The notes: generated from the sequence alone by a model not told the origin. 64,000 nucleotides of DNA from Chloroflexota bacterium (GCA_034432775.1 DAOUBH010000024.1:15982-79981), one strand, 5' to 3'; numbered from the stretch's first letter, positions 1 through 55,519 are shown. Translations and numbers: made by a program.

Positions 1-85
1 CAAGTACAGCTGGGACAGCATCGCTTCTAAGGTCGCAGCAGTATACCAACGTGTTGTCAGGGAACGTCAGCAGGTGATCTGGTAG
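1..85 (+). CDS. 3' fragment of an upstream gene (C-terminal 27 codons; possibly a glycosyltransferase C-terminus)
   Basis: An open frame runs from the window edge and translates to [27 protein letters not shown], ending at TAG 83-85. The sequence resembles GT4 C-termini. It is too short to be sure. Confidence 0.3.
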
Positions 86-96
86 GGGGCGCAACC

Positions 97-2601: not shown

Positions 2602-2633
2602 ATCTGAATCTTTAATTGCGGGAGGGGCTCACG

Positions 2634-5193: not shown

Positions 5194-5196
5194 GCC

Positions 5197-6603
5197 GTGG
5201 GCAAGGCTTATCTCGTAATACACGGTCACTTTTACCAGCCCAATCGTATCGATCCCTTCACTGGAGATGACTACACGGAGCCCGAAGCTGCTCCCTTCAA
5301 AAACTTCAACGAGCTGGTCACTTACCAGTGCTATGGGCCAAATGCCGAACTGAACAACTTTCAACGGATGAGCTTCGACCTGGGGCCAACGTTGGCTCAA
5401 TGGCTGGAACTTCGCCACCCTGATGTCCTAAACAAGATAGTGGAAGCGGACCGTTCTGTGGTCCAACGCTTTGGCTACGGAAACGCGATGGCAGCCCCCT
5501 TTGGGCACGCGATCCTTCCGCTGATTTCCAAGGCCGACAAGCGTCTTCACGTTCGATGGGGCATCCTGGATTTCCATGCCCGTTTCGGCCGAGCTCCTGA
5601 CGGAATGTGGCTCCCGGAGACAGCTGTCGATTTGGAAACGCTGGAGGTATTGGCTGAGGAGGGTATCCGGTTTACACTCTTGGCAGCGTGGCAGCTGCGG
5701 GCCAAACCCGACGTTCCCACTGGTCCCGTGGCGGTACGTCTACCCTCGGGCCGGTTTTTGCACTGTTTTTGCTTCGATCCGCAACTCTCGAAGCATCTCT
5801 CCTTCAATCCCAGGGTCTCGGAAAGTGCCCCCGCCTTCGCGTCCCTGGCCTTACCCATGCGCTTGGATTGGAAGTTGGAGATATCCGGCAACGATCAGCT
5901 GGTTTTGATAGCTACAGATGGGGAGCTTTACGGGCATCACCAGAAATTTAGGGACCTCTTCTTGGCGGACCTCCTGAATCACAGGGCCGAGGAGGCGGGT
6001 TTCACTGTCAGCCCGCTGTCGCTGGTGCACAGGCTGCTTCCGGTACAGGCAGAGGTCGAAATAGAGGAGATGAGTTCTTGGAGCTGCTTCCATCGATTGG
6101 GTCGGTGGACGGGAGGCTGTCCTTGCTCCCCGGGCCACGGGTGGAAGGGACCCTTCAGACTTGCTATGGAGAGTCTATGGCACCAGGTGCGTGAGGTCTT
6201 CCGGAACGAGGTGGGCCGGCTCATCTTAGATCCTGAAAACCTGTTGCTCCAGTATCCTACTGTAAGGGGCCGTCCTAACAGCTTCGCAAGCCTGGCAGCA
6301 AGTTTGGCCAAAGGCTCCCTGTCCCAATCGCAGCTCGATCTGTTGGAGCGTCTGTGCGAAGCTATGTATTACCGTGCCCTTAGCCAAGGCAGCGATGCTC
6401 TCTTCTTCGATGAGTTATCTAGGCTCGAACCTAGGTATGCCCTTGCAGCAGCGAAGCGGGCCCTGCGATTGGTTGGTGAGATGGTGCCTGGGCTGGAGGA
6501 CGATTTCATAAAGCGGCTCTCCGGAGCCACGAGCATCACCACCGGTGCTAAGGCTGTCGACATTTATGTGTCGCTGGGTCCTGAAGGGGGTGATGAAACT
6601 TAA
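5197..6603 (+). CDS. Glycoside hydrolase family 57 protein (putative alpha-1,4-glucan branching enzyme/amylase)
   Basis: The N-terminal HGHFYQPNR motif is the GH57 hallmark. 468 aa. GTG start. Confidence 0.85.
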   Translation: MGKAYLVIHGHFYQPNRIDPFTGDDYTEPEAAPFKNFNELVTYQCYGPNAELNNFQRMSFDLGPTLAQWLELRHPDVLNKIVEADRSVVQRFGYGNAMAAPFGHAILPLISKADKRLHVRWGILDFHARFGRAPDGMWLPETAVDLETLEVLAEEGIRFTLLAAWQLRAKPDVPTGPVAVRLPSGRFLHCFCFDPQLSKHLSFNPRVSESAPAFASLALPMRLDWKLEISGNDQLVLIATDGELYGHHQKFRDLFLADLLNHRAEEAGFTVSPLSLVHRLLPVQAEVEIEEMSSWSCFHRLGRWTGGCPCSPGHGWKGPFRLAMESLWHQVREVFRNEVGRLILDPENLLLQYPTVRGRPNSFASLAASLAKGSLSQSQLDLLERLCEAMYYRALSQGSDALFFDELSRLEPRYALAAAKRALRLVGEMVPGLEDDFIKRLSGATSITTGAKAVDIYVSLGPEGGDET

Positions 6604-7228
6604 GGGAAGCTTCGATGCTGTGATACTGGCCGGAGGCTTCAGCACGCGGATGGGCACCGATAAAGCTGGCCTTTCGCTGTTTGCGGGGGGACCAACACTT
6701 ATCGAGTGGCTGGCCTTCCGGCTCTCCCGGGTGGCCTCGAGTGTCATTGTGGTCAGCAGCAGGCCCGAAACGCCTGTTCCACCGAGGGCCCGAGTTGTGC
6801 CCGATGCAGTGCCTGGGGTAGGTGCCTTGGGCGGAATCTACTCGGGCCTGTTGGCTTCGGCCACAGGTAGGGCTTTCATAGTGGCCACCGATATGCCGTT
6901 GGTGAACCTAAGGGTAGTTCTCTACATGGCGAAAGCCTTAGACGATTTCGATGCGTTGGTGCCGTTTTCAGGGGACCGCGCTGAACCCTTGCACGCCTTT
7001 TACCGAGCCACATGCCTACCGGCGATCGAGCGGGCTATAGCTCGAGGCGATCGGCGCATCATCAGCTTCTTCCCCGAGGTGAGGGTCGCTCATCCGGACA
7101 CCCGGACGTTGAGGCGACTCGATCCCCACGCGAGATCGTTTCTCAATGTAAACACACCTGAGGAATGGCAGTCAGTGAGAGCTATGGTTCGCCGACTAGC
7201 TCGTCGCTACTGGCGGCCAACACTTTGA
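6593..7228 (+). CDS. mobA: MobA-like NTP-transferase domain protein (molybdenum cofactor guanylyltransferase-like)
   Basis: AVILAGGFSTRMGTDKAGL matches the MobA/NTP_transf_3 signature. The likely start is ATG 6593, 11 nt inside the end of the GH57 gene. Confidence 0.7.
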   Translation: MKLKGSFDAVILAGGFSTRMGTDKAGLSLFAGGPTLIEWLAFRLSRVASSVIVVSSRPETPVPPRARVVPDAVPGVGALGGIYSGLLASATGRAFIVATDMPLVNLRVVLYMAKALDDFDALVPFSGDRAEPLHAFYRATCLPAIERAIARGDRRIISFFPEVRVAHPDTRTLRRLDPHARSFLNVNTPEEWQSVRAMVRRLARRYWRPTL

Positions 7229-7929
7229 CCAGCTGGTCGCCAGAGGATAGCCATCCGTTCGCCCACCACCTCGTAGTTCATCAGGAAGCCAAAGAATATT
7301 AAATCGATGCCCAGGAACTGTGAGAGGTAGAACGGTGCTGGAACCCCAAACCGCAACAGGGTGCTCCCCGAGGCTGACACCAAGCCCCCGACGGCTATGA
7401 GGACGTTCGATGCTACCCTGTGAGGATGAGAATGCCGGATAGCGAATATGGCGGCACTGTAGATGGCACCACCGACGAGACCCAAAGTGCCGAAAATGTT
7501 GAAGATTGGCGTGAGTATCCTTACATCTCCTGGGAAACCAACTCCAGAAATTTCCCCCTCCCGCACCACGCTGGCAACGGCTTGGAAATCTACAGGAGAT
7601 GTGAAGGTTCTGTACGCCGCATAAAGGGACGCAAGGAGTAACGCCGCAAAGATATAGTGAGCGGTACGCCGTGGAAAGAGCAGGTAAATGGTACCCATGC
7701 CCAGATATGCGGCCACGTAGAAGGCGCCTGACAGGTACCAGATGCGGTATACAGCCTCGCTCCAAAGGGGTGTAGATGCTAGGTACTGACAAAGGGCCCC
7801 GACCCCGTAAAAAAGTAAGCCCATTGACCACACCAGTTGGTGCATCCTTTTTCGTCGTAGAAACTGGCTAATTACAAGTACGGAGAACAGAAAGCTTATT
7901 GTGGCTGTCAGGCCTGAGAGGAGCGCCAT
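7207..7929 (-). CDS. Integral membrane protein of unknown function
   Basis: 240 aa with multiple hydrophobic helices. GAGGAGG RBS lies upstream. Last gene of the DUF218-HIT-NUDIX operon. Confidence 0.5.
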   Translation of the reverse strand: MALLSGLTATISFLFSVLVISQFLRRKRMHQLVWSMGLLFYGVGALCQYLASTPLWSEAVYRIWYLSGAFYVAAYLGMGTIYLLFPRRTAHYIFAALLLASLYAAYRTFTSPVDFQAVASVVREGEISGVGFPGDVRILTPIFNIFGTLGLVGGAIYSAAIFAIRHSHPHRVASNVLIAVGGLVSASGSTLLRFGVPAPFYLSQFLGIDLIFFGFLMNYEVVGERMAILWRPAGQSVGRQ

Positions 7930-7932
7930 GTT

Positions 7933-8343
7933 CTAATCCTCCTCGGAATTGCTGCCAGGGACTATTCGGTCCTTTAAGATAACCAGGGCTTTCTGTAGTA
8001 ACAGACGGTGGTTTTCTATATTCAGCTTGGTGAGAGCTTCCTCGGGGGTCATTAAGACAGCATCCTTCCCGTCGTGTTCTGGCCACTGCGGGCCAGGTCT
8101 TGCAGTCATGGTAAAGTAGCTCACTTGGAAATCATCGCTGCCCATGGAGTAAAAATCTTCCCCTACAGGATATGGTTCGGAACCCAGCAGACCTGTTTCC
8201 TCCTCAAGCTCACGCAGGGCGGCGCTCTCAGCCGCCTCGCCGTCCTCGATATGTCCTTTAGGGAAGATCCATTCGCCCTTTGGGGTGCGTCGCACGGCGA
8301 CGAGACCGTTCACAAAGGCTATGGCGCCTGCCTCACGGTGCAC
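7933..8343 (-). CDS. NUDIX hydrolase
   Basis: Nudix box GHIEDGEAAESAALRELEEETGL. Confidence 0.8.
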   Translation of the reverse strand: MHREAGAIAFVNGLVAVRRTPKGEWIFPKGHIEDGEAAESAALRELEEETGLLGSEPYPVGEDFYSMGSDDFQVSYFTMTARPGPQWPEHDGKDAVLMTPEEALTKLNIENHRLLLQKALVILKDRIVPGSNSEED

Positions 8344-8857
8344 TTTCCTCCCCCGACGCTAGGATCGTCACTAGGCCTGCCTTGAGTTTGGAATAGGTTG
8401 TGTTTAGAAGTTCAGGCATCACATGCACGTCGGCAAGGACAGGCATGAAATTTGTGTCTCCCATCCATCGTGGGACCACGTGCATATGCACGTGATCGGC
8501 AATTCCAGCACCGGCCACTCGTCCGATGTTTATCCCGATGTTGAAGCCGTCGGGCTGCATGACGTGTCGCAGAAGCCTCTCTGAAAGGCGCACTAATTTT
8601 ATCATCTCAGTGAGTACATCATCCGTAAGGTCCAGCAGATCCGGCACGTGTCGGTATGGAACGATCATGAGGTGACCGTTGTTATAGGGGTACAGGTTCA
8701 TTATGATGTAGCACTCGCCGCCCCGGTACAATATCAGATTGTCTGTGTCGCTGTTCTCCGTAGGTTTTTCGCATAATATGCAGCTTGCTCCCTCCATCTT
8801 TGAGCTCTCTATGTACTGCATGCGCCATGGGGACCAGATTCTGTCCATCGGGCTCAT
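8333..8857 (-). CDS. HIT-family protein (histidine triad nucleotide-binding/ hydrolase or phosphorylase)
   Basis: HVHMHVVPRW matches the HxHxHxx histidine triad. 174 aa. Confidence 0.75.
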   Translation of the reverse strand: MSPMDRIWSPWRMQYIESSKMEGASCILCEKPTENSDTDNLILYRGGECYIIMNLYPYNNGHLMIVPYRHVPDLLDLTDDVLTEMIKLVRLSERLLRHVMQPDGFNIGINIGRVAGAGIADHVHMHVVPRWMGDTNFMPVLADVHVMPELLNTTYSKLKAGLVTILASGEESAP

Positions 8858-9498
8858 GGCTCCTTTAGTAGATTGGTTAGGCTCCCTGATACCACCGCAC
8901 CTGCCTCACGTGCTGCCAGATAACTGACGGCGGCGGTCTCTCTCAAGATGTGGTAAATGCGCCCCCCGGTAGAATAATACCAGTCGTCGGCTGCAGCGGC
9001 TGAGGCGCGGAATCCTTCTCGTCGAAAGAGCCAAACGCTTCGTGTCAGGTGATACCCATCGCTCACCACAATCACATCTCTCCATCCACGCTGCTTGAGA
9101 AGCTCTCCCACGAAACGGGCGGACTCCTCGGTGCTGGTAGCCATGGGCTCCTCAATGATAGCAGAACGCGGAATCCCCAGGCTTTCAAGGATCGATGCCG
9201 CCACGCTAGCTTCGGCGGGCAGCGAGCCTGTCTTACCTCCAGAGGTGATAATGTGACTTGCGTATCCTGTCCTGTAGAGCTCAGCAGCCTTTTCCGCTCG
9301 GCCTCGCAGCGCTGGCGATGGCCGTCCCCCTGGCCATACTGCGGCACCCAGCACAACAATCGCGTCGGAAGTCCGTGGCAGGTAACGTTGTGAGCCGGTG
9401 GCCACGGTCCCGATGAGGAACGTGAAGACTGCCACAACGCCCAGAAGGCTCCACGCTATCACTTTGCCTATCGGCAGTAGTGCGTGGTTTACGGACAT
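8854..9498 (-). CDS. DUF218 (YdcF/ElyC-like) domain protein with N-terminal TM helix
   Basis: IVVLGAAVWPGG...SHIITSGG...EESARF...VIVVSDGYHLTRS is typical of DUF218. Confidence 0.7.
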   Translation of the reverse strand: MSVNHALLPIGKVIAWSLLGVVAVFTFLIGTVATGSQRYLPRTSDAIVVLGAAVWPGGRPSPALRGRAEKAAELYRTGYASHIITSGGKTGSLPAEASVAASILESLGIPRSAIIEEPMATSTEESARFVGELLKQRGWRDVIVVSDGYHLTRSVWLFRREGFRASAAAADDWYYSTGGRIYHILRETAAVSYLAAREAGAVVSGSLTNLLKEP

Positions 9499-41964: not shown

Positions 41965-42556
41965 GTCCGTCCCTCAGGGGGAAGGTAGCCAGCCGTTCGT
42001 ACACGGCACCACCTCTCTGCAAATGACTTCTCATAAGAGACACATGAGTCACCACAAACTCGATCCTTACTTCGCGGAGACGATGCGCTACGTTGCCCAG
42101 GCTGACCAGTTCACTCCTAGATAGGCGCCTGCGGACCCTTGCCAAGGTCAGGTGTGGGGAAAAGGCTCGTGCTTCCCGCGGGAGGTTGAGTCTTGCGAGA
42201 GCTTCATCTAGAGAGACTGCCAGTTTTGACAGCGGCGTAACATCCCCTGTGATGCCGAGCCATATTACCCTTGGGCTATCTGCGGACGGAAAGACGCCTA
42301 GACCACTGATGACGACCCTGAAAGGTCGATAGCCGCCCACTGCGGGGGCAGCCAGACGTTCGATTTCGGGCACCAACGTTGCTGGCACGTTGCCCAGGAA
42401 TTTCAACGTGATGTGGACCATATTGGGTCTAACGTAAGCTAGATCAGGGAGCGCATCCCGAACTATCTGCTGAACTTGCCCAACGCGCACCAAGGCGTCT
42501 TGGGGCAACTCTATGGCAAGAAAAGCTCTTACATCCGACCCTGCCGATGTGGTCAT
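41957..42556 (-). CDS. thpR: RNA 2',3'-cyclic phosphodiesterase (2H family)
   Basis: Two H-x-T-x motifs (HITLKFLG and HLTLARV) are spaced as in LigT/ThpR. Confidence 0.8.
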   Translation of the reverse strand: MTTSAGSDVRAFLAIELPQDALVRVGQVQQIVRDALPDLAYVRPNMVHITLKFLGNVPATLVPEIERLAAPAVGGYRPFRVVISGLGVFPSADSPRVIWLGITGDVTPLSKLAVSLDEALARLNLPREARAFSPHLTLARVRRRLSRSELVSLGNVAHRLREVRIEFVVTHVSLMRSHLQRGGAVYERLATFPLRDGHG

Positions 42557-45500
42557 GCCTTTCTTAGGGCCAGCGTCACTTTCTGGCCGTCCACATTGGC
42601 TGTAGTGGTATAAGCACCCGTTGGAGGTTCTTCCAGTAGAAGCTGAACGGCCAAAGTTTCGGTGGCTATGTACTCCCTGGCTGCTTCCACAGCCTCCTTC
42701 AGGGCTGTGTCTCCCCTTATGTAGAGCACAATGCGGTCGTCGATATTCAAGCCAGCAGATTTCCTGGCTTGCTGTATGTGCCGCACAAGCTCCCTGGCTA
42801 TTCCTTCGCGTCGAAGCTCATCGGTCAGGGTCAGGTCGACAGCAACTGCAAATCCGTATTCACTGGCGGCTGAGTACCCCGGCTTGGCCCTGAGTTCCAC
42901 GATCAGTTCTTCAGGCTCTAGTTCCAAGCTCTCCCCGTCCACAATGACAGTGATGGGCTCGTGTCGCCTCACCTTTCGAGCTATTTCTGTCGTGTCGAGA
43001 GACCTCAGGTAGTCCTTAACACGGTCGTACAGCCGCCCCAGCTTTGGCGCCAGTACTTCCCCATTAGGTTTCACTTCGTAGGTCGCGATTTCATCCTCCC
43101 TCTCCACGAACCTTACTGCCTTCACGTTGAGCTCATCCTGAATGAGATCAAGAAGAGGCTGTACTGCCGAACTAACAGAGGGATCCTCCGACCATATCTG
43201 TAGCTCCCTCAGCGGCTGTCTGACCTTCACCTTGGCCTTATTTCTTGCGGCTCTGCCGAGCGCAACGATCCGCATGGCTGCACCCATAGAGGCGATGAGA
43301 TCTTCGTCGATCAGGCTAACGTCCGGCTCCGGATAGTCCAGAAGGTGCACGCTCTCGGGTGCGGATGGATCTACAGACCGCACAAGGTTCTGATACATGC
43401 GTTCTGCAAGGAAGGGCATTATGGGGGCTATCAGTGTCGCAAGGGTTGTGAGCACCTCATAGAGGGTCTTGTATGCTGCTGCCTTATCTGTATCGTTCTC
43501 GCTCTTCCAGAACCTTCGCCGGCTCCGCCGTATGTACCAGTTAGAGAGGTCATCGATGAGTCTCTCGACGTCGCGGGTGAGGGCCGCGACGTTGAACCGG
43601 TCCAGCTCTTCGTTGGCGGTGCCGACGACCTGGTGCAGACGGGCCAAGATCCAGCGGTCCAGGAGGGATCTGCGATCTATGGGAAGCTCGTAGCTCCTTG
43701 GGTTCACCTTGTCGAGGTTTGCATAGGTCACGAAGAAAGAGTAAGCGTTCCAAAGGACCAACAGCCTACGCTTGACCTCTTCTGCTGGACCCCAGCCAAA
43801 GAGGAGATTCTGCTGAATGTTCTGGGAGGCGTACATCCATCGCATCACGTCGGCGCCCATGCGCTCGGCGGCTTCGTCGAACCAGATGGCGTTTCCCAGG
43901 CTCTTGTGCATCGGGCGACCTATTTCGTCGTAGACCTTCTCGTATACCATAGCGCACCGATAGGGCGCCATGCCTTCCAGGGTGACGCTCATGAACAGCA
44001 TGGAGTAGAACCAGAGGCGTATCTGTTCACGCATCTCGACGATGTAGTCCGCAGGAAACCATTGCTGCCAGTAGCTCCGGTCGTACAGGTAATTCAGGGT
44101 GGAGTAAGGCACGATGCCAGCATCAAGCCAACAGTCTCCAACTTCCGGAATGCGCCGCACCGGTTGACCGCAACCGCTGCAGGCGATCACCACATCATCG
44201 ATCCAGGGTCGGTGGAGTTCCACCAATCTATCCAGGCCCGAGATGGCCCTTTCCGCAAGCTCCTTTCGGCTGCCGACTACGGTAAGCTTGCCGCAGCTCC
44301 CACAGGGGTAGAAGGGGAGCGGGAGCCCCCAGTAACGTCGCCGGGAGATCACCCAGTCGTGCATATTGTTGAGCCAGTCTTCCATGCGCTTCAGGGCATA
44401 CCCGGGGATCCACTCGACGGTCCGGGCTGCTTCAATAAGTTTTGGCCTTATCTCTTGAACGGAGATGAACCACTCGTCAACCAACCGGAAGACCAGTTCT
44501 TCGCCACAGCGCCAGCATACCGGATATCGGTGTGTGTAGTCTTGTGTTCTATACAGGTAACCCTTTTGTCTGAGATTTTCCACTATCCGCGGAGCGCTCT
44601 CTCGCACATTGGATCCCGTGAGTTCCCCGAACCCTTCCAGGAATTGACCGTCCTCGCTGAGAGGTGCTATGACGCTGAGGCCGTGCTCTCGCCCGAGCTC
44701 GAAGTCCTCTTGACCGCATCCTGGAGCTATGTGGACGATACCCGTGCCCTCTTCCTCTCCCACCTGATCCCACGGTATCACCCTATGGTTCACACCTTGT
44801 TGGACTGGCAGCTCGTCAAAGGGGCCTCTGTATCGCCATCCCAACAATTCGCGCCCCTTCAGGACCGCTACTACCTCGTAGGGGCCCTGGATTGCAGAAT
44901 CCAAGGTGCCCCTTGAGAGATAGTAATATTCATTGTCTTGACGTACCTTGACGTACTCTAGGTCTGGGTGGACAGCTACAGCGGTGTTAGATGTCAGTGT
45001 CCACGGCGTCGTGGTCCAAACGAGCAAGTATTCCTGAGGTCGGCCTTCCAGGGGGAGCTTTAGAAAGATTGACAGGTGAGTTATGTCCCTGTAAGAGTCA
45101 AGCATCTCGTGCTGAGACAAGGATGTGCCACACCGGATGCACCAGGGCATGGTCTGGTGGCCCTGATATAGCCATCCCAGTTCATGGCAGCGTTTGAGGA
45201 AATACCAGATGTGCTCCTCATTTTCGTCGGACATGGTGTAGTAGGAGTTCGGCCAATCCATCCATTGGCCGAGCCGAATGGACTGTTGCGTCTGTATCTT
45301 GGAGTAATAGAGTACGCGTTCTTTACACTTACGAGAGAAATTCTCGAGCCCGTAGGCCTCGATTTCACGCTTGGAGTTTAGACCCAGCTCCTTTTCTACC
45401 TCCACTTCTACCCAGAGGCCTTGACTGTCGAAGCCATTTTGGAATCGCTGGTCGTAGCCCTTCATGGCCTTGTAGCGCTGATATATGTCCTTGTAGGTCC

Positions 45501-45684
45501 GACCCCAGGCATGGTGGACCCCCATCGGGTTGTTGGCTGTAATGGGACCGTCTATGAAGGACCATCGAGGCTTGCCCCGGTTCTTTTCGACCAATTTGTA
45601 GAAGATACGCTTCCGTTCCCAGAACTCTAGAATTTCATGCTCGTGGTTCGGAAAGTCCAGTCTACTGGCAACTGGCTGAAACAT
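42553..45684 (-). CDS. ileS: Isoleucine--tRNA ligase, type 2 (eukaryote-like)
   Basis: HMG-type class I motif PMGVHHAWGRT. KMSKS-like KSLGN. 1043 aa with a type-2 C-terminal region lacking the type-1 zinc finger. Confidence 0.95.
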   Translation of the reverse strand: MFQPVASRLDFPNHEHEILEFWERKRIFYKLVEKNRGKPRWSFIDGPITANNPMGVHHAWGRTYKDIYQRYKAMKGYDQRFQNGFDSQGLWVEVEVEKELGLNSKREIEAYGLENFSRKCKERVLYYSKIQTQQSIRLGQWMDWPNSYYTMSDENEEHIWYFLKRCHELGWLYQGHQTMPWCIRCGTSLSQHEMLDSYRDITHLSIFLKLPLEGRPQEYLLVWTTTPWTLTSNTAVAVHPDLEYVKVRQDNEYYYLSRGTLDSAIQGPYEVVAVLKGRELLGWRYRGPFDELPVQQGVNHRVIPWDQVGEEEGTGIVHIAPGCGQEDFELGREHGLSVIAPLSEDGQFLEGFGELTGSNVRESAPRIVENLRQKGYLYRTQDYTHRYPVCWRCGEELVFRLVDEWFISVQEIRPKLIEAARTVEWIPGYALKRMEDWLNNMHDWVISRRRYWGLPLPFYPCGSCGKLTVVGSRKELAERAISGLDRLVELHRPWIDDVVIACSGCGQPVRRIPEVGDCWLDAGIVPYSTLNYLYDRSYWQQWFPADYIVEMREQIRLWFYSMLFMSVTLEGMAPYRCAMVYEKVYDEIGRPMHKSLGNAIWFDEAAERMGADVMRWMYASQNIQQNLLFGWGPAEEVKRRLLVLWNAYSFFVTYANLDKVNPRSYELPIDRRSLLDRWILARLHQVVGTANEELDRFNVAALTRDVERLIDDLSNWYIRRSRRRFWKSENDTDKAAAYKTLYEVLTTLATLIAPIMPFLAERMYQNLVRSVDPSAPESVHLLDYPEPDVSLIDEDLIASMGAAMRIVALGRAARNKAKVKVRQPLRELQIWSEDPSVSSAVQPLLDLIQDELNVKAVRFVEREDEIATYEVKPNGEVLAPKLGRLYDRVKDYLRSLDTTEIARKVRRHEPITVIVDGESLELEPEELIVELRAKPGYSAASEYGFAVAVDLTLTDELRREGIARELVRHIQQARKSAGLNIDDRIVLYIRGDTALKEAVEAAREYIATETLAVQLLLEEPPTGAYTTTANVDGQKVTLALRKA

Positions 45685-45700
45685 TTCGATCCTCCATTGG

Positions 45701-46035
45701 TCAGAATAGAAAGAGGTCTCATCCTTAAGGACGAGACCATAGACGTCATGAGAGGTCCCGCGGTACCACCCTGATTAGTGCTCCGCACTCCCTCCTTACG
45801 GGTGCTTTTAGACACCCGCGCCGAGGATAACGGTCGGCGGAACCGGCCGAGCCTACTGGGCTCAGGGCCGTTCGGTCGGCAGCTCGGGAACGATTTTCGG
45901 TCGACCTCTGGGGCTCCGCTCCCACCGTCCGGAGCTCGCTGTGCCCATCGTTACGACCTACTCTTTTCCGTCGTCGCCTGTAACTATGGGCTGTGTTTCA
46001 AATATTAAGATATCCCCTGGCTGAGCCGATGTCAA
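45701..46035 (-). ncRNA. T-box riboswitch leader of ileS (with terminator/antiterminator)
   Basis: The minus strand has the T-box sequence AAUCAGGGUGGUACCGCGGG (plus 45759-45772 and flanks). A terminator hairpin GGUCUCGUCC-UUAA-GGAUGAGACC plus UCUUUCUAUUCU (45701-45738) sits just 5' of the ileS RBS. A TTGACA-N17-TATCTT promoter is at ~46008-46036. The candidate Ile specifier AUC lies in GAAAAUCG (plus 45892-45894). Confidence 0.8.
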
Positions 46036-48849: not shown

Positions 48850-50280
48850 TTATTCGGCACAGCAGGACAGCATTGCGGGATCCTTATAACGCGAGATGGC
48901 CACAAGCTTTAACGCCTCTGCCATGGTAGGATAGACATGTATCATGTCTATAAAGTCGTCTATTTTGGCGCCGAACCTCAGGGCCATGGCTGCTTCGTGG
49001 ATGACCTCAGCGGCATCCCGCATCACTAAGGACACCCCAAGGACCTGATTACTGTCAGCGTCAGCCACCATCTTCACGATGCCTCGCGTATCCCTGGTAG
49101 CCCCAGCCCTAGGGACGATATCCATGGACAAGGTATTGCACCAGCATTTGTGCCCCTTTGCCATAGCCCGTGCCTCGGTTAATCCAACGGTTGCTACCTG
49201 GGGATCAGTGAAAATGGCACGAGGGATCACCGAGTGGTCGACCTTTCTCATCGTCCCTGAGAGGGCGTTCAACGCCGCGATACTGCCGTCGTGGGCGCCA
49301 ACTGGCGTTGCCAGCTGACTGCCCGTATGGCGTCCGATCACATCTCCAGCCGCCCATATGTGCGGAACGTTGGTCTGCAAATAATCGTTGACGGGAACGA
49401 ACCCGGCACCGTCGGTCCGGACGCCAGCCTTTTCGAGGGCCAGGCTGTCCGTGTTGGGTATGCGACCCGTCGCGACGAGTAGACTGCTGGCGGAAAGCTC
49501 CTGCTCTCGGCCTCCTTGGCTCACGATTACCACAATCTGCTGTCCTTTCTGCTGGATCCGCTTCACATGGCCGTTGGTGACTATGGTCACGCCATCGCTC
49601 CTAAGTAAGTCGGTAATTGCCGTAGATACTTCGGGCTCGTGGTCTTTGAGGATCCTTGGCCCTCTTTCCAGAAGGGTTACCTTTGTTCCGAAGCGCTGAA
49701 ACATCTGACCCAGCTCTAAAGCTATGTATCCTCCGCCCAGAATGATGAGGGAAGCGGGCAGTTCCCACATTTCAGCAGCTTCCCCAGCTGTCAGCAGATC
49801 GGAGGTCATGTACGGGACCTCCTCGAGACCTTCGACGTCGGGGATATACGGGCGGCTACCAGTGGCTATAAGGAAGTGCTCTGCTTCCAAAATTTGTCCG
49901 TCCACGGCGATGGCCCGGGGTGACACAAAGTGGGCCTGGCCGTAATAGACGTCGATACGATCGGAGGCGTCGACGATGGAATGGTATTTCTGGCGCCTGA
50001 AATGTTCAACTACCTGGTCCTTCTGGCTCACCAGTTGACGGAAGTCTATCTCGATTGTGCAAGCCCTGAGCCCGCGGTACCGGGGATGGGATGCTTCCCA
50101 GACGATCCTGGCGGCTTCGATCAGATTTTTGCTGGGGAGACATCCTCGGCTCACACAGGTGCCACCCAAGGTACGGCTCTCGCACATGGCGGCGGTCTTG
50201 CCGAGTTCGGCGGCCTTTATAGCTGCCGCAAAGGCTGTGGAACCTGAGCCGAGGATGATCATGTCGTATCGCTTGTTCAT
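48850..50280 (-). CDS. Mercuric reductase-like flavoprotein disulfide oxidoreductase, core only (no NmerA/HMA domain)
   Basis: GGTCVSRGCLPSK redox-active disulfide. FAD/NAD Rossmann motifs. The C-terminal vicinal cysteines (LSCCAE) are diagnostic of MerA rather than Lpd/GR. Confidence 0.7.
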   Translation of the reverse strand: MNKRYDMIILGSGSTAFAAAIKAAELGKTAAMCESRTLGGTCVSRGCLPSKNLIEAARIVWEASHPRYRGLRACTIEIDFRQLVSQKDQVVEHFRRQKYHSIVDASDRIDVYYGQAHFVSPRAIAVDGQILEAEHFLIATGSRPYIPDVEGLEEVPYMTSDLLTAGEAAEMWELPASLIILGGGYIALELGQMFQRFGTKVTLLERGPRILKDHEPEVSTAITDLLRSDGVTIVTNGHVKRIQQKGQQIVVIVSQGGREQELSASSLLVATGRIPNTDSLALEKAGVRTDGAGFVPVNDYLQTNVPHIWAAGDVIGRHTGSQLATPVGAHDGSIAALNALSGTMRKVDHSVIPRAIFTDPQVATVGLTEARAMAKGHKCWCNTLSMDIVPRAGATRDTRGIVKMVADADSNQVLGVSLVMRDAAEVIHEAAMALRFGAKIDDFIDMIHVYPTMAEALKLVAISRYKDPAMLSCCAE

Positions 50281-50402
50281 CTGCTACACCCCACGAATAT
50301 TTAGCGTTGCTCACCTTAATGGTTGCCTGATAAGTCTTCCTAAGGTGGACCTTGGGATCCGAACGAAAGGCGTGGCTCCTAACGGCACGACGGCGATTGG
50401 CC

Positions 50403-50936
50403 CTAACAACAGGGGCCGCCCTTCTGTTGGGGTGTCAGCAGCTTTTCAACTACGACCTTTAGGGTGTTATAGTCGGTCGGGACCTCGTCTCGGTACACCA
50501 CATTGCCGTAGGTGTCGAGAACGACGGTAGTGTCAAGATACCTAACCTGAAACGCCTGTGCTGCCTCTCCCCATCGGTCAATGGCCCATGAGTAAGTGGC
50601 TCGGGGTATCAACGTGCGAAACTTAACTACATTCTGTGGAGTTTCGTCGGGTTCCACATCTACCGCGATCACCTGTAGTCCCTTGGATCCGTATTGCTCA
50701 TATATATCGGCCAAAGCCCTCGCTTCGGGTATGCACGCTGTGCACCAGGCCGCCATAAAGTAGAGGACTAGCGGCTGGTCCGGCCGCCGAGCGACAGTTA
50801 AGGTTCCACCGTCCACGTTTTCCAACCTGATGCCGGATATCGGAGACTTCGGGCCTGGAACACCGTTCTGGGACGGTAGTGAGACTTGGCTCCTCACGAG
50901 AAGCAGTGTTACGGCCAGTATCGTTGCGACCAGCAA
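50403..50936 (-). CDS. TlpA/ResA-like thioredoxin-fold thiol:disulfide oxidoreductase with N-terminal membrane anchor
   Basis: N-terminal TM helix, then LVLYFMAAWCTACIPEA with a CxxC in redoxin context. Confidence 0.7.
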   Translation of the reverse strand: MLVATILAVTLLLVRSQVSLPSQNGVPGPKSPISGIRLENVDGGTLTVARRPDQPLVLYFMAAWCTACIPEARALADIYEQYGSKGLQVIAVDVEPDETPQNVVKFRTLIPRATYSWAIDRWGEAAQAFQVRYLDTTVVLDTYGNVVYRDEVPTDYNTLKVVVEKLLTPQQKGGPCC

Positions 50937-51023
50937 TACTGTCCCTATTCCAAGGCTTCGACCGAGGAGATTGTTCCTTAATAGGAATGTGAACGTACCC
51001 CGATTTATGGTCTCTTCTGCCCA

Positions 51024-51674
51024 TCAGGGTTCCTCCCTGTCCACATACCTTCGTGGAAGCGAAACCTCTGGTTGGCGGCACGTTGTGCAAAAGGCATCGG
51101 AGGGGCGTCCGCCTTGTTTTGCGGTACGTGCAAATTGTTGTACGATTATCGCCCTGACGATGTAGTGGACATTTACGATTACAGCGACAAAAGCCAGAAG
51201 GGCCAACACCGCCTGCCTGTATGCAAAGAACAGGGACACTGGCTCCCAACGGAAGGGAAGAGCGAAGCCTAGGTCCCAAAGGACCCTTAACAAGGCAACC
51301 ATCAAAGCAGCGCCGGTAAGCAGGAAATAGGCTACTCTCAAGGCTGCATTGCGGCTGCGCCTTGCGGAGATGGCGGCCAACCCAGCGACTAGCACTGCCA
51401 TGGGCGCTTCGAACTGGTTGAGGACCGCCAGCGCTCCCACTCCCCCGAGCATCGCAACTGTCTGAGCCAACCATGTGAGCAAGAACGGGCCGCAGCAGGC
51501 AGTGGCTGCGAGCGCGGCAGCGCCTACGGCAGCCACGATCCCCGTCACGCCGTTGACATGCGATCCGCTATCGGGAGCTGTCCCTCTAGAGGCATCCGAT
51601 GTCCGGCCAACCTCCTCGGGCGGCGAACCGATCGAAGTTGGGTGCGGGCCTAGCTCCTTTGATTCCACTGTCAA
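51024..51674 (-). CDS. MerT-like mercuric transport membrane protein (vicinal-Cys TM motif)
   Basis: TM1 AALAATACCGPFLL carries a CC pair followed by proline as in MerT. A second pair, CTTC, is near the C-terminus. 3-4 TM helices. Positioned between merA and the thioredoxin gene. Confidence 0.5.
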   Translation of the reverse strand: MTVESKELGPHPTSIGSPPEEVGRTSDASRGTAPDSGSHVNGVTGIVAAVGAAALAATACCGPFLLTWLAQTVAMLGGVGALAVLNQFEAPMAVLVAGLAAISARRSRNAALRVAYFLLTGAALMVALLRVLWDLGFALPFRWEPVSLFFAYRQAVLALLAFVAVIVNVHYIVRAIIVQQFARTAKQGGRPSDAFCTTCRQPEVSLPRRYVDREEP

Positions 51675-51715
51675 CCTCCGGCAGTAATGTCATGGTCCTG
51701 GCAGGTTTTCAGCCG

Positions 51716-53341
51716 CTATCCAGCGCAGCAGGAGAGCTTGCTCACGTCTCGGTGCACGCCTTGCGCAGCCAGTTTCAGTGACTCGGCCATGGTCAAATAG
51801 GGGGCAAAGGAGTCTGCCAGGTCACTCAGCGTTATTCCAAATCTCATTCCTAAAGCCGCTGCGTAGATTACTTCGCCAGCGTTTTCGGCCACAATGTGGC
51901 AGCCTAACAGGCGACCGGTGGCTGAATCGAACACCAGCTTCACGATCCCATGGGTGTAGCCGTTTACCAGTGCCCTGGGTACTTGGTCCAGAGGTAGCAG
52001 AGAGACTCCGACATCGAGGCCAGCATCTCCGGCCTGAGCCTCCGACATTCCCACAGAGGCGATCTGAGGCATGGTGAAGGTGACTCTGGGCACTATCGAT
52101 AGGTCCACGGGCGTTTCCTTTCCTAAAAGGATGTTCTCCGCCGCGAGCTTGCCTTGGTAGGCGGCTACATATACGAACTGAGGACCACCCGTTACGTCTC
52201 CGGCTGCCCATACACTTGGGTTGGTGGTGCGTAACGTAGCATCCACCTTGATAGCCCCTCTGGGGTCCGTGGCGATGCCTGCCCTTTCGAGACCGAGTTC
52301 AGCGGTGTTCGGTCTTCTTCCCGTGGCTACCAGCACGCTGTCTGCTTGCCAGGAGGCCTCGCGGCCGTTTATCGCGACACGGATTGTGCCGTTACTGATC
52401 TCCAGGATTTCTGCACCTGTAACGATCTCTATGCCCTCGTTAACCAGTGCATCATGCATGGCGGTGCTGAGTTCAGGTTCTTCGAAGGGAGCTATGCGGG
52501 GCATCATCTCGAAGACTGTCACCTTGGAGCCCACCCGAGCGAAGTACTGTCCTAGCTCTAGGCCTATGGCATTGCCCCCTATCACCGCTAGGCTCCGAGG
52601 GGGTACAAGGACGTTCAAGGCTGATGTGCTGGTAAGGTAGTCGACCTTTTCGATGCCCGGTATCGGCGGGATCCATGGTGAGGCGCCGGTGGCAATAAGA
52701 TAGGCTTTGGCCTTGAACCTTCGATTGCCTACTTCTACATGCTGCTGGTCGATGAACCGTGCAGTCCCCGGGATGAGTTCCCATCCGTATGCTTCGATCA
52801 AGTCGATGTACTTCCTTTCTCTCAAGGCGGCCACCAGGGCATCTTTTTGGCCCACGATTCGCGGAACCAGCCCAGAGGGATCGATATTGAGACCAATTTT
52901 CTGGGAGGTGTACAGATCCTCTGCTCCTTTAAGCAGGGCCTTGGAAGGGATACATCCCACGTTAACACAGGTTCCGCCTACCGTGCCCCGCTCTACCATT
53001 ATCACTTTGGCTCCGAGCTCCGTAGCTCGGATGGCAGCGGCAAAAGCGGCCGCACCAGAGCCGATGACCAGCAGGTCTGCGTCGTAAGGCCCCGGTCCAC
53101 TGCTGCCCGCACTCGGAGGCCTCTCTGGTTTGGGGTGCCCGCCTGTATATCCCGCCCGATCCACAGCTCTCTTGAACTGTACGGGGTCGACGGAAGGATC
53201 TGCCAGAAAGGTGGCCCGCCCGTGGATGTGGTCGACTTGGATATTCTTAGCTCCTGCCTGTTCCAATGCCGTCGCGACCCGGATTTCGCAGTCATGGCAC
53301 GTCATGCCTTGTACTGTCATTTCGTATGCACGTAGGTTCAT
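51716..53341 (-). CDS. merA: Mercuric reductase (NmerA HMA domain + catalytic core)
   Basis: HMA motif VQGMTCHDCEIRV. Active site GGTCVNVGCIPSK. C-terminal LSCCAG. Preferred start is ATG 53341 (MNLRAYEMTVQGMTC) with a GGAAGGGG RBS. Confidence 0.9.
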   Translation of the reverse strand: MNLRAYEMTVQGMTCHDCEIRVATALEQAGAKNIQVDHIHGRATFLADPSVDPVQFKRAVDRAGYTGGHPKPERPPSAGSSGPGPYDADLLVIGSGAAAFAAAIRATELGAKVIMVERGTVGGTCVNVGCIPSKALLKGAEDLYTSQKIGLNIDPSGLVPRIVGQKDALVAALRERKYIDLIEAYGWELIPGTARFIDQQHVEVGNRRFKAKAYLIATGASPWIPPIPGIEKVDYLTSTSALNVLVPPRSLAVIGGNAIGLELGQYFARVGSKVTVFEMMPRIAPFEEPELSTAMHDALVNEGIEIVTGAEILEISNGTIRVAINGREASWQADSVLVATGRRPNTAELGLERAGIATDPRGAIKVDATLRTTNPSVWAAGDVTGGPQFVYVAAYQGKLAAENILLGKETPVDLSIVPRVTFTMPQIASVGMSEAQAGDAGLDVGVSLLPLDQVPRALVNGYTHGIVKLVFDSATGRLLGCHIVAENAGEVIYAAALGMRFGITLSDLADSFAPYLTMAESLKLAAQGVHRDVSKLSCCAG

Positions 53342-53357
53342 GGTTAAGCCCCTTCCC

Positions 53358-53723
53358 TTATGTTCTTGAGCAGGTGACGACGCGGCTGAAATTGCGGGAG
53401 AGCGATTCATGGGCCAAGGCCAGTATCTGCTGCACGTTTGGATCGGCTATACGGTAGTACATACGTTGCCCGTCCCGCCTTGCGGTTACAAAGTTGCACC
53501 ACCTCAGGCAGGCCAAATGGTTGGATATGCGGGGCTGCTTCATTCCCAAATGTTCTGACAGTTCTTCTACGCTCTTTTCGCCTTCGAGAAGGGCCTCGAG
53601 AATCCCAAGTCTCACGGGGTCGTCAAGCCCGCGGAACCACTTGGCAAGGGCCTCGAGGTGATCCCAGCCTTCGAGGAGATCCATTGATTCATGCGTAAGT
53701 TCGCGGGTGTGATTGCCAGTCAT
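53358..53723 (-). CDS. ArsR/SmtB-family metalloregulator (mer operon regulator candidate)
   Basis: wHTH region LGDPVRLGILEAL..EKSVEEL..HLGMKQPRISNHLACLRW. First gene of the mer operon. Confidence 0.8.
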   Translation of the reverse strand: MTGNHTRELTHESMDLLEGWDHLEALAKWFRGLDDPVRLGILEALLEGEKSVEELSEHLGMKQPRISNHLACLRWCNFVTARRDGQRMYYRIADPNVQQILALAHESLSRNFSRVVTCSRT

Positions 53724-53741
53724 GCCGCACTCCTCAGAGTT

Positions 53742-53778
53742 ATATCATAATATTATAATACACGTTACATGCTGTCAA
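53742..53778 (-). promoter_or_regulatory. mer operon promoter (TTGACA / TATAAT) overlapped by AT-rich imperfect inverted repeat (candidate ArsR-type operator)
   Basis: The minus strand reads TTGACA-gcatgtaacgtgtat-TATAAT-attatgatata...GAGGAG-N6-ATG. The repeat TATTATAAT/ATTATGATA has one mismatch and overlaps the -10. Confidence 0.4.
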
Positions 53779-53921
53779 GCTGCTAGGCATTCTTAGGGGC
53801 GTCGTCGAGTGAGGAACGACGCAAGCGTTCATCGAGCAGATCGAAGGACCTGCAAATAGTCAGGCCCTGGCATGAGAGTCCCAGGGCCTTTAGATCGGAT
53901 TGGATATATTGGCTGACGGGT

Positions 53922-53992
53922 GGGCCTGGCAGGATTCGAACCTGCGACCTGTCGATTATGAGTCGATTGCGCTACCGCTGCGCCACAGGCCC
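53922..53992 (-). tRNA. tRNA-Met (anticodon CAT; elongator type or Ile2-lysidine; 3' CCA not fully encoded)
   Basis: A manual cloverleaf fits: acceptor GGGCCUG/CAGGCCC, D-arm GCGC-AGCGGUA-GCGC, anticodon loop CUCAUAA, T-arm GCAGG-UUCGAAU-CCUGC, discriminator A. G1-C72 is paired, so it is not an initiator. Confidence 0.85.
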
Positions 53993-54207: not shown

Positions 54208-54474
54208 TTAGGATGACCCCCCGAGACGCGACCATAGGTCTTCTGGCCAGTCGCGATCGGGCGCCAAATCGGCCTCGAAATCCACATGGCCGCCTTCTCT
54301 CAGCTTGGCCCGGAACAGCCCCACAGGCTTACCGTTGACGAACACGTGCAGTACTGCCGTGGCTGCCCTGAACTTAAGAAGCACTTCATAGGCAAGGTCC
54401 GCTTGTGAGCCGTCAGACCGTCGCAGGGTAGCAGTTCCAACTGCTAGTCGTTGTGTTCTCATCTCATGCCCCAT
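54208..54474 (-). CDS. Hypothetical small protein
   Basis: 88-aa ORF with no recognised motif. Confidence 0.3.
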   Translation of the reverse strand: MGHEMRTQRLAVGTATLRRSDGSQADLAYEVLLKFRAATAVLHVFVNGKPVGLFRAKLREGGHVDFEADLAPDRDWPEDLWSRLGGSS

Positions 54475-54525
54475 CGCTCACCCGAGGTACCCAACCGCTC
54501 GGCAGCACATAGATAGATGTCGACC

Positions 54526-54750
54526 TCAGTAGCAACAACTTTCCTTGTAGCCACACTTTGGGCAGAAGGAAAGTCGTCCACCAGCAAGACTCGGCATCAC
54601 ATGGCCACAGTTCGGGCATTCGTGCAGTTTTTCCGGTGGCGCTAGCACGTTGTCTAACTTCAGTCTATTTCCGCTCTCTCTTGATGACTTCTCTTGTCGG
54701 TCAGTTTCCCTTTGATTCGGCATCCTTAGGTCTCGCCTTGGCCCTTTCAA
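54526..54750 (-). CDS. Zinc-ribbon domain small protein
   Basis: CPNCGHV...CPKCGY gives two CxxC pairs at the C-terminus. Start uncertain. Confidence 0.4.
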   Translation of the reverse strand: MKGPRRDLRMPNQRETDRQEKSSRESGNRLKLDNVLAPPEKLHECPNCGHVMPSLAGGRLSFCPKCGYKESCCY

Positions 54751-54985
54751 TGCGATCTGCTATTCGAGCTCGGGCTATCTGTAGTCGCCTGATCTCGTCC
54801 TTTCGCAGTTCCTCCTGTGCCTCAGCCCTTTGAGCTTCATGAAGTAGCTCCATGAGCTGGTATACCTCTTCGCGGCTCATGGACAGGGTTACTTGTCGAC
54901 CCCTCAGCTGTAGCCAGAACAGCTCGCCTTCCTGCCAGATGTCACCTAGGGGGTTGGATGCCAGAAGCCTTCCATAAAAAAGCAT
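54701..54985 (-). CDS. Hypothetical small protein with charged helical C-terminus
   Basis: 94-aa ORF. A TATAAT-like element lies ~25 nt upstream. Confidence 0.3.
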   Translation of the reverse strand: MLFYGRLLASNPLGDIWQEGELFWLQLRGRQVTLSMSREEVYQLMELLHEAQRAEAQEELRKDEIRRLQIARARIADRIERAKARPKDAESKGN

Positions 54986-55231
54986 GGCAGATATGCTCCA
55001 GATACCTTACGTGAATTATAGGGCTACCTACAGCTCTTGTGGTACCATACTGGATGGGTCCTGCGCAGTGCGCGGCGCTGTTCGAAGTCTTGATCCAACA
55101 CTAACGAACAGGGGCCTGGTCGCTGGCGCTTGCTCAGGGTGGGATAGACCACTAGGGCAGGTTTGCTGGCAGAAGACCCCACCTGGCTAGGCCGGGTTCA
55201 CAGACTTTGCAGCCTACGGCTGGGCGGGACC

Positions 55232-55519
55232 CTACCCTTGATCGACAGGGGATTTGGCTGCCAGAAGTTTGTTAAGCTTCATGGTGAGGCGAGACTTCCG
55301 CCGAGCCGCATTGTTACGATGGATAACGCCTTTCTTGACGGCTCGGTCGATCTCGCTAATAGCTTCCCGCAGATACGTTATAGCCTTGGCGGGATCGCTT
55401 GTGGCTGCCAATAGAGTCTTCTTGGTTCTTGTTTTAATGGCCGACTTAACAGCTCGATTGCGCATTCGGCGTTTGATCGACTTTGTTAACTGTCGGATTG
55501 CTGATCGAGTGTTGGGCAA
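55232..55519 (-). CDS. rpsT: 30S ribosomal protein S20
   Basis: NTRSAIRQLTKSIKRRMRNRAVKS...AARRKSRL. Proposed TTG start at 55519, 7 nt after GGGAGGTG (the ORF track's upstream ATG is unlikely). Confidence 0.85.
   Translation of the reverse strand: MPNTRSAIRQLTKSIKRRMRNRAVKSAIKTRTKKTLLAATSDPAKAITYLREAISEIDRAVKKGVIHRNNAARRKSRLTMKLNKLLAAKSPVDQG

Follow-up and report, generated by a model that had tools for sequence, protein, structure and literature searches.

Can a mer operon that carries neither merP nor a merR gene of the MerR family bring Hg(II) to its reductases, and what would it do with two of these? The question is raised by a 64,000-nucleotide stretch of DNA from a Chloroflexota bacterium (GCA_034432775.1 DAOUBH010000024.1:15982-79981; this whole stretch is called the window below), in which a sequence-only reading had described, beside a tRNA-Met gene, a mercury-resistance (mer) operon with an ArsR-type regulator, a full-length MerA reductase and a second reductase that lacks the N-terminal NmerA domain. 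Outside the Proteobacteria and Firmicutes, most of what is known of mercury resistance comes from lists of genes.

The segment 48850-53778 holds five consecutive minus-strand open reading frames (ORFs) at the positions given in that reading. Their order is arsR, merA1, a gene for a membrane protein with four predicted transmembrane (TM) helices, a thioredoxin gene and merA2, with gaps of 16, 47, 87 and 122 bp between them. The unity of the operon is supported by the shared strand, by the short gaps, by the lack of any terminator-like site seen on the operon strand inside the cluster, and by the retention of the gene order in three reference loci, L003 (GCA_900175145.1), L005 (a 300-kb Joint Genome Institute contig) and L093 (a short contig). 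The ORFs, family scores and motifs bear out the composition that had been described, and we take 48850-53778 to be a genuine mer operon. In our view the locus probably belongs to the chromosome of a Chloroflexota lineage, has been passed on vertically and serves in Hg(II) detoxification, and it is built on a design with an ArsR regulator and a thioredoxin that is otherwise seen in Actinobacteria.

Conservation and gene content of the operon

The surroundings of the operon are shared with both of the longer reference loci. L003 and L005 have the order LepA, BON, MurJ, S20, small ORFs, tRNA-Met, arsR, merA1, the membrane protein gene, the thioredoxin gene, merA2, YnfA, PMT_2 and isoleucyl-tRNA synthetase (IleRS), and two short contigs, L092 and L093, hold parts of the same operon. 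The tRNA-Met (CAT) gene (53919-53992, minus strand; ARAGORN and Rfam), whose 3' end faces the operon, precedes arsR in L003 and L005 as it does in the window. Identities between the window and L003 and L005, respectively, are 83 and 88% for IleRS, 87 and 86% for LepA, 60 and 60% for MurJ and 50 and 48% for PMT_2; within the operon they are 69 and 73% for ArsR, 68 and 70% for MerA2, 58 and 57% for MerA1, 50 and 49% for the thioredoxin and 54 and 39% for the membrane protein. The mer proteins are 39-73% identical across these genomes and the flanking MurJ, BON and PMT_2 are 60%, 57% and 50% identical, and since these identities are similar we conclude that the mer genes diverged like their neighbours. 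On this comparison, the operon was already present in the common ancestor of the window, L003 and L005 genomes.

MerA1 (51716-53341, minus strand) is a full-length protein with an N-terminal HMA domain (NmerA), recognized by the mercuric reductase model TIGR02053 (544.5 bits against a cutoff of 454.45) and by the HMA model (E=3.7e-7). Its ORF extends over 51716-53410, with an alternative upstream ATG at 53410, and the likely start is M24 at 53341, which gives 541 amino acids, lies 16 bp after arsR and is the start used in the NCBI gene call. The protein has GMTCHDC in its HMA domain, the redox motif GGTCVNVGCIPSK and a C-terminal SCCAG. We aligned the MerA residues to the solved structures of the Lysinibacillus (5x1y), Tn501 (1zk7) and Metallosphaera (4ywo) enzymes. 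The Lysinibacillus structure is the best PDB match of MerA1 (E=3e-154), and the GGTCVNVGC, RKY, APYLTM and SCCAG segments of MerA1 all align with 5x1y and 1zk7. In a MerA tree, made by neighbour-joining only with 100 bootstraps and few references, MerA1 is nested with characterised MerA proteins (bootstrap 84% for Lysinibacillus 5x1y, 95% for Tn501). MerA1 is thus a mercuric reductase by every criterion that its sequence offers, and the corresponding activity is predicted.

MerA2 (48850-50280, minus strand; 476 amino acids) is a core-only protein that has no HMA domain and carries the redox motif GGTCVSRGCLPSK and a C-terminal LSCCAE, in agreement with the sequence-only reading, which had given it a redox disulfide and a C-terminal Cys-Cys (CC) pair and no NmerA. 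With TIGR02053 it scores 523.8 bits, again against 454.45, and the next model, lipoamide dehydrogenase, gives 375 bits, which is under that model's own cutoff; for both MerA proteins all other flavoprotein disulfide reductase models fall under their own cutoffs. Its GGTCVSRGC, RQKY, HVYPTM and LSCCAE segments align with 5x1y and 4ywo. The published criteria for a MerA are a redox CxxxxC, a C-terminal vicinal CC, and Tyr at the positions of Bacillus residues 264 and 605 (PMC3466566). Both proteins keep the CxxxxC, the Tyr equivalent to Tn501 Y194 (RKY in MerA1, QKY in MerA2), the Tyr equivalent to Y535 (PYLTM and VYPTM) and the C-terminal CC, so that the tyrosine pair and C-terminal Cys, which the earlier reading had named for checking by alignment, are found in each.

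The two reductases had been called paralogs. They are only 41% identical and lie in separate, well-supported clades, and therefore do not stem from a local duplication. In the tree all CC-tailed sequences split from the CC-less paralogues at 98% bootstrap, and the MerA2 clade, which is marked by HVYPTMAE and a C-terminal SCCAE, is recovered at 100%. This clade is sister to, and not nested in, the clade that holds the three characterised references from Tn501, Lysinibacillus and M. sedula (71%). The phylogenetic placement that had been proposed as a test of the second reductase therefore came out in two parts: MerA2 groups with the CC-tailed MerA proteins, and it stands outside the characterised clade, as its sister. 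Because of this sister position mercuric reductase activity of MerA2 is put here as a prediction, and a strong one. Many Chloroflexota proteins that carry the name mercury(II) reductase share 64-71% identity with MerA2, whose clade comprises 527 loci in species-representative genomes, mostly of Chloroflexota and also of Planctomycetota, Acidobacteriota and Armatimonadota. A possible characterised member of the clade, Synechocystis Slr1849, could not be verified; a review describes Synechocystis as having no MerA by the usual criteria.

Two further features of the reductases were observed. MerA2 residues 379-381 (49138-49146, minus strand) read C-W-C, a motif that is invariant in 12 aligned clade members and absent from MerA1 and the three reference MerA proteins. 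In both reductases a Glu closes the second strand of the dinucleotide fold (VTVFEMMPRI in MerA1, ~52480-52510; VTLLERGPRI in MerA2, ~49660-49690, both minus strand), at a position where the Tn501, Lysinibacillus and M. sedula enzymes have Ala or Gln and then Arg. Glu at this position goes with NADH rather than NADPH in related flavoenzymes, and both MerA proteins may thus use NADH rather than NADPH.

The pairing of the two reductase types was surveyed in 80 MerA2-type loci from named genomes, five of which (L014, L021, L029, L074 and L080) also have an NmerA-type, CC-tailed MerA within 8 kb. A TlpA-like gene is present in many of the 80, in most cases accompanied by one for a CcdA-like membrane protein. 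The MerA2-type gene directly follows a mer-type ArsR gene in many loci, and in L014 (a Chloroflexota metagenome-assembled genome, isolate A0_26) it comes directly after merB and a small HMA gene. The L014 cluster as a whole (1-9431) contains ArsR, a CC-motif lipoprotein, two beta-propeller-like proteins, a MerE-like protein, TlpA, the NmerA-type MerA, a truncated ACCG membrane gene, MerB, the small HMA gene and the MerA2-type gene. Multiple merA copies per genome have been reported for 777 of 6274 genomes (PMC8261052). The second "mercuric reductase" of the Mycobacterium plasmid pSMC-4_3 was considered as a precedent for two MerA proteins in one locus and was ruled out, as that protein has no C-terminal CC.

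The first gene of the operon, arsR (53358-53723, minus strand; 121 amino acids), encodes an ArsR/SmtB metalloregulator (HTH_5 E=1e-15; NF033788 92.8 bits against a cutoff of 55). Its thiolate pattern combines C-L-R-W-C in the recognition-helix region with a C-terminal Cys (VVTCSRT). In an alignment with CmtR (2jsc) the helix pair coincides with Cys57 and Cys61, and the third Cys lies in the C-terminal tail. With the CmtR equivalog model of NCBIfam the protein scores 69 against a cutoff of 150, although its three Cys are in corresponding places. The CLRxC motif, usually with a distal Cys, is common to MerA-linked ArsR proteins in at least 12 other loci, and the window ArsR is 45.5% identical to the ArsR of the pSMC-4_3 mer locus. 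ArsR-regulated mer operons are documented and make up 8.1% of operons (PMC3466566).

Upstream of arsR, a consensus scan gave a putative sigma-70-type promoter with 10 of 12 matches (TTGACA, 17 nt, TAATAT; 53750-53778, minus strand), the end of which coincides exactly with the end that the sequence-only reading had set for the operon. The TTGAC of the -35 element aligns with L003 and L005 sequence upstream of arsR. The -10 element is overlapped by an imperfect palindrome, GTATTATAATATTATGATAT (53742-53761, minus strand), which has counterparts at the corresponding site, downstream of the -35 element and ahead of arsR: a perfect 20-bp palindrome, ATATCATGATATCATGATAT, in L005, and AAATCATGATATCATGATGT in L003. 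A conserved palindrome over the -10 element fits an autoregulated repressor-operator arrangement, and we regard it as a candidate ArsR operator.

Neither merP nor a MerR-family merR had been seen in the sequence-only reading, and this was borne out. Neither the gene calls within +/-10 kb nor the seven scanned ORFs include a MerR-type helix-turn-helix gene, and no HMA gene was called over the same distance. No MerP-type HMA protein with GMTCxxC was found; across the 64 kb, the NmerA of MerA1 supplies the one convincing HMA motif.

The membrane protein and the thioredoxin

The gene between merA1 and the thioredoxin gene (51024-51674, minus strand) encodes a membrane protein with four predicted helices, which its CC motif, topology and mer context mark as a candidate Hg(II) transporter. 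A vicinal CC lies in TM1 (ATACCGPF) and a CTTC in the cytoplasmic C-terminal tail, the topology being taken from the charge distribution and the helices of an AlphaFold2 (AF2) model. This model (predicted local distance difference test score, pLDDT, 74) has four long helices, and a Foldseek search with it against the PDB gave nothing below E=1.

The protein matches no Pfam or NCBIfam family. The Pfam MerT model gives E=4.2 and 7.9 bits against a cutoff of 32.9, the MerC, MerF and MerE models give no match, and when Pfam was searched at E up to 10 the only model found was MerT (E=2.6-4.2). The description of this protein as MerT-like therefore does not hold as family membership, since the MerT score is far under the cutoff and the likeness to MerT, MerC and MerF is one of CC motif and topology only. 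A profile of its family scored near or below zero against the small mer membrane proteins of Actinobacteria and Firmicutes.

The family to which it belongs is very small. A word-indexed search of 5.8 billion proteins returned the membrane protein itself and one relative, a full HMMER profile search of 1.84 billion representatives returned 23 family proteins, and a scan of the genome collection with the membrane-protein alignment found no relative in species-representative genomes. The proteins are 150-230 amino acids long. Across 24 members the A-C-C-G(P) of the first helix hardly varies; GG, Y/F-E, LRxxW-D/E and FxxRQ motifs are conserved as well, and most members have a Cys in the basic C-terminal tail. 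Family members stand beside MerA, MerB or MerE-like genes in five non-orthologous contexts: next to MerA and a TlpA-like protein (L008); adjoining MerT-like and HMA genes, MerA and MerB being close by (L009-L011); between MerA and MerB (L014); upstream of a MerE-like gene (L098); and overlapping the start of a MerA gene whose cluster also includes ArsR, MerE-like, redoxin and DsbD-like genes (L099). No mercury gene was seen on a further short contig with a family member, L100. By these searches the ACCGP membrane protein is a member of a tiny unclassified family, and its genomic context is the main functional evidence for treating it as a candidate transporter.

The next gene (50403-50936, minus strand) encodes a membrane-anchored thioredoxin of the ResA/TlpA fold (AhpC-TSA E=7e-15, Redoxin E=1e-12) with the active site WCTAC. 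Its AF2 model (pLDDT 85) has an N-terminal helix and matches ResA 1su9 in Foldseek with a TM-score of 0.86 and a root-mean-square deviation of 1.6 A; with the NCBIfam models it scores 46.8 against a cutoff of 170 for ResA and 28.3 against 230 for TlpA. In orthologues whose N terminus is intact, the anchor helix is preceded by a positively charged segment, which places the thioredoxin domain outside the cell.

The last ten residues of the protein (168-177) are disordered in the model and end in Cys-Cys. This CC tail occurs only in the window and in two orthologues, P0124 and P0125 (GGPCC, RAGCC and TPGCC); more distant relatives lack it, as do the TlpA proteins of actinobacterial mer operons. 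A second departure from ordinary ResA/TlpA proteins is shared more widely: by a motif alignment, an invariant L-D-(T/S)-T stands at the usual cis-Pro position throughout a mer-linked TlpA subfamily of Chloroflexota and Actinobacteria, L094 and L095 included. In the window it reads LDTT (residues 134-137; 50520-50535, minus strand), with Asp at the cis-Pro position, and it suggests that this subfamily has lost the cis-Pro.

The closest plasmid homologues of the thioredoxin are TlpA proteins in actinobacterial CcdA-TlpA-merA-merB and ArsR-2TM(CC)-TlpA-CcdA operons. A review lists TrxA- and CcdA-domain proteins among actinomycete "mercury transporters", together with an ArsR-type MerR (PMC12195606). 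The suggestion that the thioredoxin may substitute for MerP thus has a real precedent in homologous TlpA proteins of actinobacterial mer operons, and because of this precedent it is not new in itself.

The start of the thioredoxin gene is unusual. Its frame is open to 51023 and is in frame with the membrane protein gene across a single TGA (50937-51026, minus strand); a good Shine-Dalgarno sequence with an ATG that overlaps this TGA (GGGAGGaaccctgATG) is in the +1 frame. In L005 the two genes are separate, lie in different frames and have a normal ATG, so that a 1-nt assembly indel is the simplest and likely reading for the window; a non-canonical start or a frameshift are possible alternatives. 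Selenocysteine or readthrough at the TGA was considered and rejected, given the separate genes of L005, in favour of an assembly indel or a TTG start. In L003 (10577-11981) the thioredoxin is split, with the anchor in one frame and the domain in another that runs into a 375-amino-acid ORF, and the closely related L093 has an intact 209-amino-acid thioredoxin gene ending in GCC; the split L003 gene is probably an assembly error or a pseudogene.

L005 has an additional gene between the thioredoxin gene and merA2 (8716-9408), for a CcdA-like membrane protein with about six predicted helices and the motifs SPCGLAVLP and SCSLP, which has no Pfam hit. A tblastn search with this protein found homologues beside TlpA-like genes in ~20 MerA2-type loci. 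L005 and L008 have both the CcdA-like gene and an ACCGP protein, and the window, L003 and L093 have no CcdA-like gene.

Proposed mechanism and alternatives

The analysis shows the genes, their motifs and family scores, the folds, and the conservation of the locus and of the candidate operator. The scheme that follows is inferred, with all its transfers of metal, the split of work between the two reductases and the role of Hg(II) as effector. In it, an ArsR dimer would bind the palindrome over the -10 element when metal is absent and keep the operon repressed. Hg(II), bound at a CmtR-like site of three thiolates (two Cys of the recognition-helix region and one of the C-terminal tail), would release it. 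Outside the cell the anchored thioredoxin-fold protein would take Hg(II) by its flexible Cys-Cys tail, by WCTAC or by both, and thiol ligand exchange would carry the ion to the TM1 Cys-Cys of the 4-TM protein and on to the Cys of its cytoplasmic tail. In the cytoplasm the NmerA of MerA1 would take Hg(II) from protein thiols and pass it to the C-terminal CC and redox CxxxxC of MerA1, while MerA2, having no NmerA, would directly reduce Hg(II) bound to small thiols; the Hg(0) formed would exit the cell. We propose tentatively, as an idea that may well prove wrong, that the 4-TM ACCGP protein and the CC-tailed thioredoxin are a previously undescribed Hg(II) uptake relay with a new transporter family, and that MerA1 serves protein-bound and MerA2 small-thiol Hg.

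Several points weigh against reading the locus in this way. The ArsR site has its nearest characterised counterpart in CmtR, whose metals are Cd and Pb and not Hg. Homology of the membrane protein to MerT, MerC, MerF, MerE or MerH could not be detected, and the only canonical in-frame start of the thioredoxin gene is a TTG that truncates the signal anchor. A CcdA-like partner was not found in the window by tblastn, though it is present in L005, L008 and ~18 other loci. The 122-bp gap ahead of merA2 might hold a separate promoter for this gene. Finally, for the thioredoxins with a CC tail, the membrane family and the MerA2 clade alike, we found no biochemical or genetic characterisation in the literature, and the genes of the operon are known from sequence alone.

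Other explanations give the same genes different roles. MerA2 could be something other than a mercuric reductase, namely a related flavoprotein disulfide reductase that acts on another thiophilic metal, on a persulfide or disulfide, or in re-reducing the thioredoxin and transport module. Such a role would fit its lack of NmerA, its GRHTGSQLATPVGAH in place of the GGPQFVYVAAY segment, the clade-specific invariant CWC, the sister position of its clade to that of the Tn501, Lysinibacillus and M. sedula enzymes (71%), and the lack of any experimentally characterised clade member found in the literature. We think it unlikely, given a TIGR02053 score far above those of the other flavoprotein disulfide reductase models, the presence of all the published signature positions (the Cys pair, both Tyr and the C-terminal CC), the 98% grouping with CC-tailed MerA proteins against CC-less paralogues, and the placement of MerA2-type genes directly after merB and a small HMA gene in L014 and after mer-type ArsR genes elsewhere. 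The M. sedula protein, a solved mercuric reductase, moreover has a similarly divergent segment, GGKMLEALAGRQG. A somewhat less doubtful alternative, which we still would not favour, is that import of Hg(II) is not the task of the thioredoxin and the membrane protein, which would instead protect or repair extracytoplasmic thiols, by reducing disulfides or stripping Hg from envelope proteins, with Hg entering the cell otherwise. The thioredoxin has the fold of ResA, DsbE, DsbF or StoA, and ResA/TlpA-type reductases act in cytochrome maturation; in L005, L008 and the ~18 other mer loci it is paired with a CcdA-like electron-transfer protein, which is the classic reductant-supply pair, and many mer operons work without a dedicated transporter (PMC3466566). 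Against an ordinary oxidoreductase cycle stands the TlpA subfamily's LDTT or LDST in place of the usual cis-Pro; in addition, the lineage-specific CC tail, carried on a disordered extension, mirrors the tail with which MerA captures Hg, and the window has no CcdA yet keeps the thioredoxin beside a CC-bearing membrane protein.

The remaining alternative concerns the origin of the locus. The sequence-only reading had noted that the operon abuts the 3' end of the tRNA-Met gene, a hint at a horizontally acquired resistance island integrated there. The operon starts 141 bp downstream of this 3' end, mer genes are frequently mobile, and MerA1 is closest to Firmicutes-type MerA and ArsR and TlpA to actinobacterial plasmid genes. 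The same reading had found no integrase and no tRNA-derived repeat, and this agrees with our results: no integrase, transposase or recombinase was called within +/-10 kb, and no repeat of the tRNA-Met 3' end, searched for as a sign of attL/attR sites, was found even with 3 mismatches allowed. The GC content, which it had suggested comparing with the flanks, is flat at 0.55-0.58 across the region and shows no shift. The gene order is identical in L003 and L005, and the identities of the mer proteins are in the range of those of flanking genes. A recent island is refuted by this synteny, and we regard island integration at the tRNA-Met gene as very unlikely; we read this tRNA gene as a neighbour conserved with the operon and not as an att site. 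That parts of the operon came in laterally at an earlier date is plausible, the nearest relatives of MerA1, ArsR and TlpA being genes of Firmicutes and Actinobacteria. Vertical inheritance within the Chloroflexota lineage is thus the account of the operon's recent history that we prefer.

Other features of the neighbourhood were recorded. A T-box leader (45724-45983, minus strand; Rfam RF00230, 95.3 bits against a gathering threshold of 93) immediately precedes the isoleucyl-tRNA synthetase gene (42553-45774, minus strand). Three small ORFs between S20 and tRNA-Met (54208-54985, minus strand) encode 88, 74 and 94 amino acids, the 74-residue product having CPNC...CPKC zinc-ribbon motifs, and are 47-77% identical in L003 and L005. 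Between these small conserved ORFs and S20 there is a 6S RNA gene (55055-55234, plus strand; RF00013, 54.2 bits against a gathering threshold of 46.4).

Comparison with known systems

Most of what this locus holds is already known: the ArsR/TlpA mer design occurs on actinobacterial plasmids, and multiple merA copies are common. Less ordinary are the ACCGP membrane family, the CC-tailed thioredoxin and the conserved tandem of two MerA clades. The mer paradigm is not overturned by these findings. The membrane family, which is very rare and repeatedly adjoins mer genes, is a candidate new family of Hg(II) transporters, and a thioredoxin with a MerA-like, Hg-capturing Cys-Cys tail would be a natural experiment in the evolution of metal hand-off modules. 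An NmerA-bearing and a core-only reductase that are conserved together would allow the long-discussed role of NmerA to be compared in one organism, and a large SCCAE "MerA" clade outside the characterised enzymes matters for metagenomic merA surveys.

Two of the individual proteins have characterised relatives. CmtR (Rv1994c), the Cd/Pb-sensing repressor of M. tuberculosis, shares with the window ArsR the aligned Cys57/Cys61 pair and the Cys of the C-terminal tail; the window protein differs in scoring less than half the CmtR cutoff (69 against 150) and in standing in a mercury, not a cadmium or lead, context. With the ResA/TlpA/DsbE reductases the window thioredoxin shares the fold (TM-score 0.86, 1.6 A to ResA), the N-terminal anchor and the CxxC; it differs from them in falling under the NCBIfam cutoffs, in the Asp at the cis-Pro position (LDTT), in its CC tail, and in a mer context in place of cytochrome c maturation.

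The canonical operons of Tn21/Tn501 and Bacillus (MerR-MerT-MerP-(MerC/F/E)-MerA) have in common with the window a full-length MerA (MerA1, E=3e-154 against the Lysinibacillus MerA) and a logic of thiol relay, which in the window is putative. In the canonical relay Hg(II) passes from an outside binder to the TM1 CC, a cytoplasmic Cys, NmerA, the C-terminal CC of MerA and the active site. The window differs in that its regulator belongs to ArsR/SmtB and not MerR, in that it has no HMA-type MerP, in that its membrane protein fails the MerT, MerC, MerF and MerE models, and in its second, core-only MerA.

The S. lividans-type mer operons of Actinobacteria, with an ArsR-family "MerR", a TlpA-like "ORF3/MerP", a CcdA-like "MerT", MerA and MerB, are a further point of comparison, for which we used Arthrobacter pJ340-69, Rhodococcus pCP2 and Mycobacterium pSMC-4_3. 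These share with the window an ArsR with C-x3-C and a C-terminal Cys (45.5% identical), a downstream MerA, a membrane-anchored TlpA (34-37% identical) with FMA(A/S)WCxxC and LD(T/S)T, and a small membrane protein with CC in TM1. In contrast to them, the window locus is chromosomal and syntenic rather than on a transposon and has neither CcdA nor merB; its CC protein has four TM helices and no detectable homology to the 2-TM actinobacterial ones; its thioredoxin adds the Cys-Cys tail; and it has two bona fide MerA proteins by sequence, whereas the second reductase of pSMC-4_3 is without the C-terminal CC.

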